This document shows positions 619 to 12,628 of a stretch of DNA of 14,195 bases, piece after piece. The position numbers and the translations under genes were made by a program. Every line of letters begins with the position of its first letter. The first letter of the stretch is position 1. The DNA lies in IMG/VR virus record IMGVR_UViG_2617270940_000003; one strand, given 5' to 3'. A model generated the notes under the pieces. The model worked only from the letters and a program-made list of their open reading frames with translations, did not search any database and was not told the origin of the DNA. Source of the DNA: a virus. Its lineage: Duplodnaviria > Heunggongvirae > Uroviricota > Caudoviricetes.

Positions 619-2231
619 TAGGCTATTTACCATAACGCCTCATTACGCGCACCGCCCAGACTGACTCAGCGCGTTTCTGGCATATCCCCGGTAAAACAAG
701 TAACAAACCACCCGAAAATGAACACCAGAAACGCGACTTAAGAATCTACCCTATGAATGGATATGCACTCAACCGAATCGATCTTGGTTTCAATCTTTTT
801 TATCGGGATCAGGCTTCTTTTTAGGTAACTTCGGGGGCTTAACTTGCTGATGACTTTGCGTTCGGCGCGTAAGCCAGGGATGGTCAGCTTTAGGTTTAAC
901 ATAGTATTTTGAGCGTAAATCAATACGGGCATTATCCACTCGTTCATGGACACTCTTTTCATCATCCAGTGGTATAGGCTCCGGGCCATCAACATACTTT
1001 TCCCAGCCCAGCGCTTTCCCGTCATACAGAACGTTAATTTCACCGTCAAAGTTCTCGCATACAGTAACAACCGAATGCCTAAGTCGATATCCCCGGCTCT
1101 CACTGCGTACCTGAAACGCACTGCTTTTGTACTGGAAAGTGAGATTTTTAGACAGAACGCGCTTCGCCTGTAGGCTGAAGATATAACCCAGTTCCTCTTC
1201 AGAATGGTGCACATCAAGATGAGCATTATCAGTAGTACGAGGCGACGTAGCGAACCGGTTGTTATAGGCTTCAATAAAGGTCGGCAACCATGCATTTGCT
1301 GTTTCAATATCACTGATATTCTGAAGCCGCATTTCTTTGACCAGCCTGTCCTGTAGTGTCTGATTGGCGCGCTCTACCCGCCCTTTTGCCTGCGGGCTGT
1401 TGGCATGGATTGGCTCGATGCCCAGTGTCTTTATCGCACGAGTGAACTGGGTCAGCTCACCTTCCCGCTCTGGGTTATTTACCCTGAATATACTGTGTCT
1501 ATCAGAGTAGAGAGCGAGCGGTACGCCATGATCATTAAGGTAACCCCGGAGGGTTTCCATGTAAGCCCGGGTTGTTTCAGCAGGCACAAAACGCAACGCC
1601 ATCAACGCACTGGTGGCATCATCAATGAAAACGATCAGTGTACATCTGGGGCCTCGATTTTCAAACCAGTCATGAGGTGAGCCATCAATCTGGATCAGTT
1701 CACCGTAAGATGGTCGTCGCATGCGGCGTTGATATATACGGGCAATTTTACGACGGCGTTCACGCCATAACCCCTCTTCTATCATCCACTTTCTGAGAGT
1801 TTCAACGGATAAAGATAAACCGTGTATCTCGCGCAATTTTTCGCACGCAAACGTAGGTCCAAAATCAGCGTAACGGCCTTTGAGGAGTGAAATTACTGTT
1901 GCTCTGAATTCAGTAGAAAAGGAATTATTAGGACGCTTTCCACGTCGGTGGGAAACCAGACCAGAAGGCCCTTCATTTCTATACCGTTGCACCAGACGTT
2001 TAACCTGCCGAATAGAAATGCCAATGCGTGCCGCAGCTTGTTCCTGAGTAATATGTCGATTAATTGACTCCTGAATAATCTGAAGTCGGTGGAGTTCCTT
2101 ATGACTCATCGTAACAGTCTCTTTGATCATGAAAAATCCCCCAGAGAATTGTCTGGGGACATTTTAGAATGGTTCAAAGGGGACATTACAGCTTGGTGTT
2201 AACAATAGCCTGCTTCTCCGTGCCTTTCGGC
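619..2231 (-). mobile_element. Tentative extent of the IS carrying the 446-aa transposase; ends not resolved
   Basis: Only a weak imperfect inverted match between 619-640 (aggctatttaccataacgcc) and the reverse complement of 2210-2231 (aggctattgttaacaccaagc). Hairpins at 2148-2167 (ccccaga-N6-tctgggg) and 2237-2254 (cggagaagc-N0-gcttctccg) lie in or just beyond the transposase leader. No clear target-site duplication found. Confidence 0.3.
790..2130 (-). CDS. DDE-type transposase with N-terminal HTH and rve (integrase-core) domain, ISNCY (IS1202-group) or IS481-like
   Basis: 446-aa ORF. N-terminal HTH (ITQEQAAARIGISIRQVKRLVQRY). Catalytic-core candidates LIQIDGSPHDW (D), LYSDRHSIF (D), GRVERANQTLQ (E). 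Lys/Pro-rich basic C-terminal tail. Family assignment is from motif layout and length, not a search. Confidence 0.8.
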   Translation of the reverse strand: MIKETVTMSHKELHRLQIIQESINRHITQEQAAARIGISIRQVKRLVQRYRNEGPSGLVSHRRGKRPNNSFSTEFRATVISLLKGRYADFGPTFACEKLREIHGLSLSVETLRKWMIEEGLWRERRRKIARIYQRRMRRPSYGELIQIDGSPHDWFENRGPRCTLIVFIDDATSALMALRFVPAETTRAYMETLRGYLNDHGVPLALYSDRHSIFRVNNPEREGELTQFTRAIKTLGIEPIHANSPQAKGRVERANQTLQDRLVKEMRLQNISDIETANAWLPTFIEAYNNRFATSPRTTDNAHLDVHHSEEELGYIFSLQAKRVLSKNLTFQYKSSAFQVRSESRGYRLRHSVVTVCENFDGEINVLYDGKALGWEKYVDGPEPIPLDDEKSVHERVDNARIDLRSKYYVKPKADHPWLTRRTQSHQQVKPPKLPKKKPDPDKKD

Positions 2232-2464
2232 ACGTAAGAGGCTAACCTACATGTGTCTAGCATGAAATTGGCCTCAGATTAATGTTAAGCGTCTTGCAGG
2301 ACGCGTAATGTTAACTGGGGCTTTTCTCTATCTGCCGTTGGTGTCCATGCCCGAGGCAGATAGCCTCAAGCACCCGCAGTCATTCTACTTAACTAAGATT
2401 TCCCCGCAAACCGTTTTTGTCCAGCACAGTAAATATCCAACTAAACCAATGGAGTTCGCTGTAT

Positions 2465-2644
2465 TTACCGCCAGTATTCAATGCACATGACCGCCATGAA
2501 CACCCCTAAAAAAAGGGCATTTATATATCCAAATATTAATATCAAAACATCAACTTTTTCCATATACCTTGCTGTGAAGATGATGGGCATACATGATGCG
2601 AACAACCAGAACGCAACAAACAAAAACTGCAATGCGTTTTTCAT
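2465..2644 (-). CDS. Small hydrophobic protein, 59 aa, two predicted transmembrane segments; function unknown
   Basis: Internal ATG of the listed 72-aa ORF, preceded on the minus strand by a canonical Shine-Dalgarno (gtAGGAGGaataATG). Product MKNALQFLFVAFWLFASCMPIIFTARYMEKVDVLILIFGYINALFLGVFMAVMCIEYWR. AT-rich, island-like context. Confidence 0.4.
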   Translation of the reverse strand: MKNALQFLFVAFWLFASCMPIIFTARYMEKVDVLILIFGYINALFLGVFMAVMCIEYWR

Positions 2645-2901
2645 TATTCCTCCTACAATCAATGTGCAATTACATTTAAACACACCTCAATTTGGCCGGA
2701 CATATAAATATCTAAACCAGAAAAAATCACTTACATAGCGTTACAAACTCTTTAGTCTAAAGGTTCATCGTAAAACATTCCCCATACTTATCAGTCCGTT
2801 CCGCGCCAGGTAGCTCATTGCCTTATCTGGCAACCTGTAATCAGGTTTCCGCTTTTTCAGTTGGCTGGTCGTTTAACCGACATAGTTAATCCATTAATCT
2901 A

Positions 2902-3532
2902 GTTGCCGGATGTTGGTGGATTTTCGCGTTTTAGTTGTTCATAAAAGTGCACAGCTTTAACCAGTTCTTCTGATGTAACCGGGACTGGTGAGGCAGTGAA
3001 TAAGGCCTGAATTTGATAGTTCGGCCTGTCGTTACAATCCTCTTTTTTCGGTACATATTTCCAGTCACCAGACCACTACTTCCCCTGAAAGTCCGTAACG
3101 CTTTTTTCACGTAGCGATATCGCCATGCCACTGGTTTTGCTTGCCCGCCGTTTCATGCCCTTCCTGATAATTAATCTCGCTCATTCATCGCCCCACTCAT
3201 CACAATATGCTTCGACCGGAGTTTTTCCCGCTTCATAGTCATCACGCTAGGATTCGACATCAGCAGCACTTCCACCGCGTAATTCACCATAGTCCATTAA
3301 TAGTTCATCCCGCTCTTCAAAACTGATGTTATATTTAGCTGAACAAAAATCAGCCACTTTGTTCTTCCTCATCGTCTTTTATTTCGTGGTATGAGTAATT
3401 GCAGTAGTTAAAGAAAATTTCTTATGCTCCGTCATGAATTTCATCAGGTGTTGCGTCATCGTCCACTTCGAATACATCCTCAAAATCTCCACCAGCTATT
3501 TCCGTTTCAATAATAATTTTGAACTTTCGCAT
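2902..3532 (-). pseudogene. Run of decayed small phage (nin-region-like) ORFs on the minus strand: fragments in three frames, one in-frame TAG and at least one frameshift
   Basis: Hand translation gives a 36-aa ORF (3425-3532, MRKFKIIIETEIAGGDFEDVFEVDDDATPDEIHDGA); a 41-aa ORF (3251-3372) whose frame continues after a TAG at 3250-3248 as RDDYEAGKTPVEAYCDEWGDE; an ATGA stop/start overlap into MSEINYQEGHETAGKQNQWHGDIAT; and a start-less protein-like frame ...WSGDWKYVPKKEDCNDRPNYQIQALFTASPVPVTSEELVKAVHFYEQLKRENPPTSGN ending at 2902. Confidence 0.4.
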
Positions 3533-3794
3533 TTCACTACCGCCCTTTCGGGCGGCCTCCTGATGTTCTGAGGGTGCAGAAATCCATCCGGTTAAGGATT
3601 AAGTTTTATTTACAGAACTGAATTTAATTATTCAGATATACGTATCTGTAACCTTACGAATCTACTCACTGGATGCCTCTTTCATAAAAATAATCCAGTG
3701 GGTTTTATCGTTTTTTCCCTGTTCGTTGACAGATAACAGGCTTTCTATCTGTCAGTGCCAGAATCTGGCTTACCGGTATTTGCGTTTCATTCCA

Positions 3795-7820: not shown

Positions 7821-7873
7821 TTTCTGGTGACGTTTGGCGGTATCAGTTTTACTCCGTGACTGCTCTGCCGCCC
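7821..7873 (+). ncRNA. dicF: DicF small antisense RNA (about 53 nt), followed by its intrinsic terminator T-run at 7874-7878
   Basis: Sequence tttctggtgacgtttggcggtatcagttttactccgtgactgctctgccgccc followed by ttttt matches the DicF sRNA as I recall it. GC stem (ggcgg at 7836-7840 pairing with ccgcc at 7868-7872) immediately before the T-run. Confidence 0.8.
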
Positions 7874-8047
7874 TTTTTAAAGTGAATTTTGTGATGTGGT
7901 GAATGCGGCTGAGCGCACGCGGAACAGTTAAAACCAAAAACAGTGTTATGGGTGGATTCTCTGTATCCGGCGTTAATTGTTAACTGGTTAACGTCACCTG
8001 GAGGCACCAGGCACTGCATCACAAAATTCATTGTTGAGGACGCGATA

Positions 8048-8236
8048 ATGAAAACGTTATTACCAAACGTTAATACGTCTGAAGGTTGTTTTGAAATTGG
8101 TGTCACTATCAGTAACCCAGTATTTACTGAAGATGCCATTAACAAGAGAAAACAAGAACGGGAGCTATTAAATAAAATATGCATTGTTTCAATGCTGGCT
8201 CGTTTACGTCTGATGCCAAAAGGATGTGCACAATGA
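8048..8236 (+). CDS. dicB: Cell-division inhibitor DicB (acts via MinC), 62 aa
   Basis: Internal ATG of the listed 97-aa ORF, with a GAGGA Shine-Dalgarno. MKTLLPNVNTSEGCFEIGVTISNPVFTEDAINKRKQERELLNKICIVSMLARLRLMPKGCAQ matches recalled DicB. Confidence 0.85.
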   Translation: MKTLLPNVNTSEGCFEIGVTISNPVFTEDAINKRKQERELLNKICIVSMLARLRLMPKGCAQ

Positions 8237-11332: not shown

Positions 11333-12628
11333 ATGAGAGAAGTTGAAATGAAATATCCGACAGGCGTGGAAAACCATGGAGGGAAATTACGTATCTGGTT
11401 TGTTTATAAAGGCGTAAGAGTCAGGGAAAATCTGGGGGTTCCTGACACAGCAAAAAACAGGCGCGTTGCAGGTGAACTACGCGCCTCTGTTTGTTACGCA
11501 ATAAAAACTGGTGTTTTCGACTATGCAAAACAGTTTCCCTCCTCACGCAATCTGGAAAAATTTGGTGAGGCCCGACAAGATTTAACCATAAAAGAACTGG
11601 CTGAAAAATTTCTGGCACTGAAAGAAACTGAAGTCGCAAAAACATCACTCAACACATACCGTGCCGTCATCAAAAATATCCTGAGCATAATCGGTGAAAA
11701 AAATCTTGCCTCATCGATTAATAAAGAAAAATTACTGGAGGTTCGTAAAGAGCTACTGACTGGATACCAGATCCCCAAAAGTAACTATATTGTTACACAA
11801 CCAGGGAGATCGGCTGTAACTGTAAATAATTACATGACAAATCTTAACGCCGTGTTCCAGTTTGGTGTTGATAACGGTTACTTGGCAGATAACCCGTTTA
11901 AGGGGATCTCGCCATTAAAGGAATCAAGAACCATTCCGGATCCTCTTTCGCGGGAGGAATTCATCCGTCTTATCGATGCGTGCAGAAATCAGCAAGCCAA
12001 AAATTTATGGTGTGTTTCTGTTTATACTGGCGTTCGCCCTGGTGAGCTGTGTGCACTTGGATGGGAGGACATAGATCTGAAAAATGGAACAATGATGATC
12101 AGGAGAAATTTAGCAAAAGACCGTTTCACGGTACCAAAAACACAGGCGGGAACCAATCGGGTCATTCATCTTATTAAGCCAGCAATCGACGCTCTCCGGA
12201 GTCAGATGACATTAACGAGACTGAGCAAAGAGCATATCATTGATGTTCACCTCAGAGAGTATGGCAGAACAGAAAAACAAAAATGCACCTTTGTTTTTCA
12301 ACCTGAAGTGTCAGCGAGAGTAAAAAATTATGGTGACCATTTTACCGTTGACTCAATAAGGCAGATGTGGGACGCAGCGATAAAACGTGCCGGACTCCGC
12401 CATCGAAAATCATATCAGTCGAGACATACTTATGCCTGCTGGTCGCTGACAGCTGGTGCTAACCCGGCATTTATAGCAAACCAGATGGGCCATGCAGATG
12501 CGCAAATGGTATTTCAGGTATACGGAAAATGGATGTCTGAAAACAATAATGCACAGGTAGCTTTGTTAAATACACAGTTAAGCGAGTTTGCCCCAACCAT
12601 GCCCCATAACGAAGCAATGAAAAATTAA
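11333..12628 (+). CDS. Phage tyrosine integrase (lambdoid Int family); likely true start at the ATG at 11348 (MKYPTGVE...)
   Basis: N-terminal arm-binding-like segment (GKLRIWFVYKGVRVRENLGV...GVFDYAKQFPSSR) resembling e14/Rac-type integrases. C-terminal catalytic region with R (VYTGVRPGEL), H-x-x-R (RHTYACW) and the Tyr in ...MVFQVYGKW. Confidence 0.9.
   Translation: MREVEMKYPTGVENHGGKLRIWFVYKGVRVRENLGVPDTAKNRRVAGELRASVCYAIKTGVFDYAKQFPSSRNLEKFGEARQDLTIKELAEKFLALKETEVAKTSLNTYRAVIKNILSIIGEKNLASSINKEKLLEVRKELLTGYQIPKSNYIVTQPGRSAVTVNNYMTNLNAVFQFGVDNGYLADNPFKGISPLKESRTIPDPLSREEFIRLIDACRNQQAKNLWCVSVYTGVRPGELCALGWEDIDLKNGTMMIRRNLAKDRFTVPKTQAGTNRVIHLIKPAIDALRSQMTLTRLSKEHIIDVHLREYGRTEKQKCTFVFQPEVSARVKNYGDHFTVDSIRQMWDAAIKRAGLRHRKSYQSRHTYACWSLTAGANPAFIANQMGHADAQMVFQVYGKWMSENNNAQVALLNTQLSEFAPTMPHNEAMKN

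Follow-up and report, generated by a model that had tools for sequence, protein, structure and literature searches.

A 59-codon reading frame upstream of hok/sok is a probable accessory gene of Qin-type lambdoid prophages in Escherichia and Shigella

A reading frame of 59 codons, here termed ORF59, lies on the minus strand of a 14,195-nucleotide stretch of viral DNA (the window; positions refer to it unless another record is named). The evidence as a whole is best explained if ORF59 is a genuine accessory gene of Qin/hokD-type lambdoid phages and prophages of Escherichia and Shigella, and we consider this reading likely. Its status as a gene follows from a comparison with a second, distant family (family 2, as opposed to family 1, to which the window copy belongs), which keeps frame, start and stop codon and carries a coding signature. 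On this comparison, ORF59 is very probably a real protein-coding gene, either now or until recently. Current constraint is doubtful, because recent variation in the frame is nearly all non-synonymous.

The coding sequence, MKNALQFLFVAFWLFASCMPIIFTARYMEKVDVLILIFGYINALFLGVFMAVMCIEYWR, occupies positions 2465..2644 (-), comprises 59 codons plus TAA and is predicted to specify a two-helix membrane hairpin. The ATG frame with an AGGAGG ribosome-binding site reported in the first-pass annotation was confirmed on the minus strand, running 2644->2465. A longer version of 72 aa (2683->2465, minus strand) begins at a GTG 13 codons upstream of the ATG. This GTG start was dismissed, and the earlier preference for the ATG upheld, because the frame of family 2 opens at the homologous ATG and is closed by a stop 6 codons further upstream. 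The Shine-Dalgarno sequence AGGAGG (2649..2654, -) is located 4 nt 5' of the ATG. It had been described as one of the best in the window, which stands in so far as AGGAGG is present; the perfect form, however, is allele-specific, since a SNP at 2651 gives AGGGGG in about half of the family 1 copies. Family 2 has AGGGA with a 6-nt spacer. The motif AGGAGG was found five times on both strands of the window (4.3 expected), and of these copies, that of ORF59 alone stands before an ATG ORF of 59 aa or more. When the whole window was shuffled 300 times with its dinucleotides preserved, the same combination arose in 5% of the shuffles. Taken alone, the ORF and its Shine-Dalgarno sequence are weak evidence, only marginally beyond chance.

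A promoter scan revealed no sigma-70-like promoter near ORF59 in family 1, and no flanking terminator was found there. The two families can still be aligned, with indels, over ~135 nt upstream (2645..2779, -), where neither a sigma-70-like promoter nor significant RNA structure was detected, and over ~38 nt past the stop codon (2427..2464, -), where there is no terminator. About 100 nt upstream of ORF59 we noticed a palindrome, CTTTAGaCTAAAG (2749-2761), aligned with CTTCAGtCTGAAG in family 2; the changes are symmetric in both half-sites. This element could be an operator or a small hairpin. It was rejected as a terminator, for which a stronger stem and a longer loop would be needed.

The window represents an E. 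coli Qin/Kim-type lambdoid prophage and is ~97-99.8% identical over most of its length to the corresponding locus of strain ATCC 8739. There, dicA/dicC, a ydaT-like gene, a replication gene, a DUF977 gene and a methyltransferase gene are followed by an ISNCY element. The GC content around ORF59 (2401-2850) is 0.39; the ISNCY ORF lies on one side and genes flagged as broken by PGAP on the other, as stated when the region was first described as an AT-rich stretch between an IS and decayed phage genes. Upstream of ORF59, the small nin-like genes of the window (2765-3186 and 3352-3534, -) are disrupted. Their counterparts in ATCC 8739, one of them a DUF7167 gene, are marked by PGAP as frameshifted or internally stopped; those in phage vB_EcoS-640R1 form three intact overlapping ORFs (L003 5166-5771). 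ORF59 sits at the distal end of this dicC-side early-right, nin-like block and is co-oriented with it, with no detectable terminator between. Elsewhere in the window, positions 1-546 consist of an IS1 element that abuts the ISNCY element and matches the IS1 copies of many genomes at 99.8% identity; ATCC 8739 has flxA-side sequence in its place. The DicF sRNA is found at 7822-7873 (+, 77 bits), followed by a sub-threshold STnc100-like match at 7871-8080 (+, 34 bits against a gathering score of 47).

The initial description of ORF59 as stand-alone had to be abandoned. Among the 151 IMG/VR loci with enough downstream sequence, ORF59 is directly upstream of the leader of a hokD-type hok/sok locus in 150; the hok locus is complete in 115 loci, has the split arrangement of the window in 35 and is different in one. 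In the window, the hok/sok leader region (2204..2375, -) matches the Rfam model RF01794 'sok' over its full length (104 bits, E=3e-23). A putative hok promoter, TTGCGG, 16 nt, TAGAAT (2382..2409, -), which was recognised by eye and scores below the threshold of the scan tool, ends 7 nt 5' of the start of the leader model. A truncated mok remnant ORF, MLDTCRLASYVPKGTEKQAIVNTKL (2186-2263, -), crosses from the leader into the IS inserted there. The 15-bp sequence GGAGAAGCAGGCTAT (2205..2219, -), which reaches from the hok Shine-Dalgarno sequence to the AT of the hok ATG, is the last stretch homologous to the intact locus. The locus is thus split exactly at the hok ATG (2205), and the block that parts the leader from hokD starts with the ISNCY element and its transposase ORF of 446 aa (790..2130, -). 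In ATCC 8739, the hok coding sequence follows 3.3 kb on, past ISNCY, 'ydfW', flxA, ydfV, relB and relE. The 15-mer is present at both junctions (L001 3592-3606 and 6906-6920), the second copy standing before hokD after relE. In phage vB_EcoS-640R1, ORF59 is followed by a complete hokD-type locus with a promoter-like TTGCGG-16-TAGAAT, leader, mok, Hok and terminator (L003 6177-6700), and the Hok coding region is 98% identical to K-12 hokD.

The split locus accounts for the K-12 hokD (relF) gene, which lacks a leader and sok and is the third gene of relBEF. The leader/sok half 'missing' from this gene persists in non-K-12 strains across the ISNCY-flxA-ydfV-relBE block, and the split shows the origin of the relBEF operon arrangement. 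Family 2 has a dead fragment of a hok coding sequence ~55 nt downstream of the ORF (80% identical to hokD); this fragment is all that is left, and an Rfam search at E <=10 gave no match to a sok-like leader. Since family 2 is also followed by hok sequence, the linkage of ORF59 to hok predates the split of the two families. A preprint surveying Hok makes no mention of an upstream ORF.

Family 2 (P0037/P0042, from E. coli) was recovered by an exhaustive phmmer search of 1.84 billion cluster representatives. Its proteins have exactly 59 aa and share 41% aa identity with ORF59 (E=1.2e-8). At the DNA level (L267 and L268), the frame aligns with the window ORF59 gap-free, with the same ATG and stop codon, at 59% nt identity, and the indels of the alignment are confined to the flanks. 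Nucleotide identity at codon positions 1, 2 and 3 is 57.6, 71.2 and 47.5%, respectively (25, 17 and 31 mismatches). Conservation thus falls in the order position 2, position 1, position 3 (chi-square p=0.03; position 2 versus position 3, p=0.014). The Nei-Gojobori method gave dN=0.45 and dS=2.1 in the ORF59 frame. The resulting ratio of 0.21 is the lowest of all six frames, the other five ranging from 0.45 to 1.36. When 73 random substitutions were placed on ORF59 in simulations that modelled substitutions alone, the frame stayed open in 3.2% of the runs, and start, frame and stop were all retained in 0.24% (P=0.0024). The test rests on one deep comparison, as only two families exist, both from Escherichia/Shigella, and it carries an ascertainment bias in that P0037 came from among predicted proteins. 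No third, more distant family was found among the 1.84 billion representatives, in a profile search of 5.8 billion proteins or in genome, viral and metagenome contigs. A word-indexed search of 5.8 billion proteins returned solely near-identical Escherichia/Shigella sequences, some of them truncated (e.g. by a T7->T8 change).

An earlier choice of loci by protein similarity favours intact and similar ORFs. IMG/VR was therefore resampled with an exact DNA pattern consisting of the Shine-Dalgarno sequence and five codons only, which yielded 176 usable loci. The frame is intact in 173 of these (98%), so that the finding named beforehand as speaking against a gene, a frame disrupted without constraint, is generally absent. 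At a divergence of <=5%, such a proportion is also what neutrality would give. The variable sites comprise 12 non-synonymous, one synonymous and no nonsense change in family 1 and three non-synonymous, no synonymous and no nonsense change in family 2. Purifying selection was not seen in this recent polymorphism of either family. The synonymous fraction of random mutations in ORF59 is ~0.25, and the pooled ratio of 15:1 has a probability of ~0.06 under neutrality and of ~4e-6 under an omega of 0.2. Recent polymorphism can therefore be reconciled with neutrality or diversifying selection but not with an omega of <=0.2. Nucleotide diversity is modestly and non-significantly lower in ORF59 (pi 0.011) than in the immediate non-coding flanks (0.018-0.020).

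This pattern lends some weight to the view that ORF59 is the decaying relic of a former gene, one that was functional in active phages but evolves neutrally in cryptic prophages, with too little time having passed for the frame to be lost. We consider this a serious possibility, though one that falls clearly short of an even chance. The within-family ratio of 15:1 differs in the expected direction from the ~48 non-synonymous and 25 synonymous substitutions between the families; a McDonald-Kreitman-like Fisher test, using a within-family ratio of 11:1, gave p=0.095. The upstream neighbours are pseudogenes in the window, where hok is also split; in family 2, hok is dead. In a T7 homopolymer within codons 44-46 (2508..2514, -), frameshift alleles with T6 or T8 are occasionally found. 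One further copy with 53% identity (L006) carries many indels, with 40 gap openings in 943 nt compared to one in the adjacent 267 nt; these may reflect decay or assembly error, and we give the copy little weight. Against general decay stands the 98% of intact copies, which include those in phage records and at loci with intact hok. The two readings are compatible, and decay is partly included in the preferred explanation, an accessory gene of lambdoid phages: in cryptic remnants such as the window, ORF59 is probably silent or under relaxed constraint. With respect to alleles, the common family 1 form M37/H40 (window 2534 and 2527) matches family 2 at both codons. Because of this sharing, the window allele I37/Y40 is probably derived, or the alleles were swapped by gene conversion.

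If ORF59 were open by chance, it would be part of a non-coding spacer, T-rich and AT-rich, that lies before the hok promoter and lacks stop codons in one frame. Any frame of T-rich DNA translates into hydrophobic helices, and the shuffling result, the polymorphic Shine-Dalgarno sequence, the failure to find a promoter and the consistent silence of PGAP at this position all agree with such a spacer. So do the 15:1 ratio, a diversity not significantly below that of the flanks and the restriction of the family to one genus. What a spacer leaves unexplained is the second family, in which all 59 codons with their start and stop are retained at 59% nt identity (P ~0.002, substitutions alone), together with the codon-position order, the minimum of dN/dS in this frame and indels only outside it. 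We consider chance unlikely on these grounds.

ORF59 could also be a type I toxin that is silenced by an unrecognised antisense RNA and forms a second toxin-antitoxin unit beside hok/sok. The protein is within the size range of such toxins (<~60 aa and hydrophobic; 59 aa, GRAVY 1.27), the accessory island is rich in toxin-antitoxin genes (hok/sok, relBE, rem), and the non-coding flanks are conserved between the families. Other results speak against it. Fold z-scores of +0.43, -0.61, +0.34 and +1.08, covering both families, show no unusual structure in the leader and no sequestration of the Shine-Dalgarno sequence. A search for an antisense RNA gene detected no promoter-like sites on either strand in family 1, and the three minus-strand sites in family 2 equal the shuffle mean. 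The sole Rfam match at ORF59 is the neighbouring sok downstream. To our knowledge, the type I toxins so far characterised in E. coli are single-helix proteins. A second unit of this kind is therefore quite improbable.

The antisense 85-aa ORF (2481..2738, +), although annotated in phage records PV340562, ON470612 and ON470619, is effectively refuted as the real gene by the dN/dS of 0.45-1.36 in the three reverse frames and by the lack of any antisense ORF of >=50 aa at the homologous place in family 2, and its Asn/Thr-rich, low-complexity product is what is expected opposite a membrane-protein gene. In one or two of these three records (ON470612.1 23105-23356, ON470619.1, PV340562.1 10959-11210) it bears the label 'hornerin'.

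If the gene is real, its product can be expected with good confidence to be a membrane hairpin. Kyte-Doolittle hydropathy over 19-residue windows exceeds 1.6 at window starts 3-8 and 30-38, and AlphaFold2, run on a nine-sequence alignment, modelled helices at residues 2-26 and 28-58 (mean pLDDT 72). Hydropathy peaks and modelled hairpin agree with the two hydrophobic helices noted at first sight of the sequence. In family 2, the N-terminus is basic (MRK) and the loop acidic; in family 1, the N-terminus bears one Lys and the loop is without net charge. By the positive-inside rule, both termini are thus probably in the cytoplasm. Residues that are invariant between the families include W13, S17, C18, P20, T24, F38-G39, N42-A43-L44, G47-V48-F49, E56 and W58-R59. 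Polar and small residues inside the helices form the pattern expected of a packed or self-associating membrane hairpin. A concentration of the conserved residues on one helical face was tried and rejected (resultants 0.18 and 0.07, P=0.64 and 0.93).

Sequence, profile and fold searches detected no homology to characterised proteins. Pfam gave no match at E <=10 for ORF59, none of nine members matched Hok_Gef (PF01848) at E <=1, and PHROG and NCBIfam gave nothing significant. DUF4212 (PF13937), a family of small proteins with two transmembrane segments, appeared below threshold in family 2 members only (best E=0.032) and not in family 1. The PDB profile search was without a match, and Foldseek against viral structures returned nothing better than E=1.9. 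PADLOC anti-phage defence profiles matched neither family at E <=1 (0 families), which weakens the proposed role in exclusion. Peptide strings of ORF59 are absent from the searchable literature.

Family 1 is present in 1,569 and family 2 in 1,045 of 5,426 complete E. coli genomes; the carriers of ORF59 include the UPEC strain CFT073 (a family 2 genome, with the frame at NZ_CP058222.1 2736441-2736620, minus strand), ST131, O104:H4 and Shigella. Family 1 was found in only 3 of 50,697 phage records. At the Rac attachment site, family 2 occupies a remnant, flanked by ttcA and an integrase fragment on one side and by uspF on the other. In one contig of this family, cdtA, cdtB and cdtC (L267 2326-4563), identified as cytolethal distending toxin genes from ORF translations only, are located next to this integrase fragment, which comes before the ORF. 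PGAP calls nothing in any of 40 sampled rows of family 1 or 15 of family 2, so that a small membrane-protein gene skipped by a major pipeline, as first suggested, is the most likely reading. The assumption that annotation pipelines miss it needs qualification, since other gene callers have deposited proteins of both families as hypothetical or membrane protein in GenBank and UniProt, on >1,000 contigs and with UniRef entries. As far as the searched databases reach, the family appears restricted to Escherichia/Shigella prophages and is already on deposit without a name.

Both families are absent from K-12 MG1655, and K-12 small-protein surveys therefore could not have seen ORF59. A deletion in the K-12 Qin prophage joins ydfW to ydfX; reaching from inside ISNCY to ydfX, it took out ORF59 and the hok leader. 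What is annotated in K-12 as 'protein YdfW' (b1567) is equivalent to the last 49 codons of the 446-aa transposase ORF of ISNCY in the window (790-939, -; L269 7175-7324). If expressed, ORF59 would be an uncharacterised small membrane protein in roughly half of sequenced E. coli, a figure that adds the two families over the 5,426 genomes and may count twice those with both.

For the preferred reading, an accessory gene of lambdoid phages, we propose that, after induction, transcription of the phage early-right operon would read through into ORF59. This is the simplest model because the frame is co-oriented with the early-right block, no terminator intervenes and it has no promoter of its own. 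We give lytic-cycle expression by this route an even chance. The protein would then be translated from the ATG behind the G-rich Shine-Dalgarno sequence and inserted into the inner membrane. There it may act alongside Hok as a membrane-active accessory factor that modulates membrane integrity, lysis timing or release, or blocks superinfection. After induction, the phage-borne hokW of Sp5 yields an inner-membrane protein that helps lysis and release (PMC8621323). A membrane role beside Hok is the most economical guess for ORF59, and a membrane-perturbing or lysis-assisting function is put forward tentatively. A conserved two-gene membrane module, in which ORF59 would be a second effector, a modulator or an immunity factor for Hok, is improbable at present. 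Were it true, the predominance of non-synonymous polymorphism would reflect diversifying selection in phage-phage or phage-host conflict. Two points deserve to be followed up, the non-synonymous excess and the linkage to hok, and the near-obligate place before hok/sok offers a concrete hypothesis on the use of phage-borne hok loci.

In comparison with known systems, ORF59 fails the tests for a canonical holin, and of the three for a type I toxin it passes the one on size, with neither an unusually structured leader nor an antisense promoter detected. The suggestion of a holin was not borne out by position, C-terminus or family matches. In vB_EcoS-640R1, ORF59 (L003 6001-6177) is 5.5 kb away from holin S and the lysis genes, which begin at 11645, and in the window it is located between the nin-like genes and hok. 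The protein ends ...CIEYWR, only four residues after helix 2, and thus has no charged C-terminal tail. Class II holins and pinholins such as S21 have ~70 aa and two transmembrane domains. ORF59 resembles them in being phage-encoded, in its two predicted transmembrane helices and in small residues spaced four apart in helix 2 (G39, A43, G47); it differs in lying outside the lysis cassette and in having no dual-start motif, no charged tail and no holin match in PHROG or Pfam. T4 Imm is a small superinfection-exclusion membrane protein with two transmembrane segments. Like it, ORF59 is a predicted small inner-membrane accessory protein of phages in a variable region, but no sequence or fold match connects the two, and no dedicated promoter that would drive it in the lysogen was detected. 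GhoT, the type V toxin of E. coli, has 57 aa and two transmembrane helices. ORF59 is near-equal in size and has the same predicted hairpin, whereas searches detected no sequence similarity, a GhoS-like RNase antitoxin gene is missing from its neighbourhood, and it sits in a prophage rather than in a ghoST operon. Toxins of the Hok/Gef type differ from ORF59 in having one helix instead of two, a mok-like overlapping frame, a sok-like antisense element and a structured leader, none of which ORF59 has as its own, and they share no sequence similarity or Pfam Hok_Gef match with it. They are alike in being small, hydrophobic inner-membrane proteins of lambdoid prophages (as predicted for ORF59), and the two are physically linked at nearly every locus compared.
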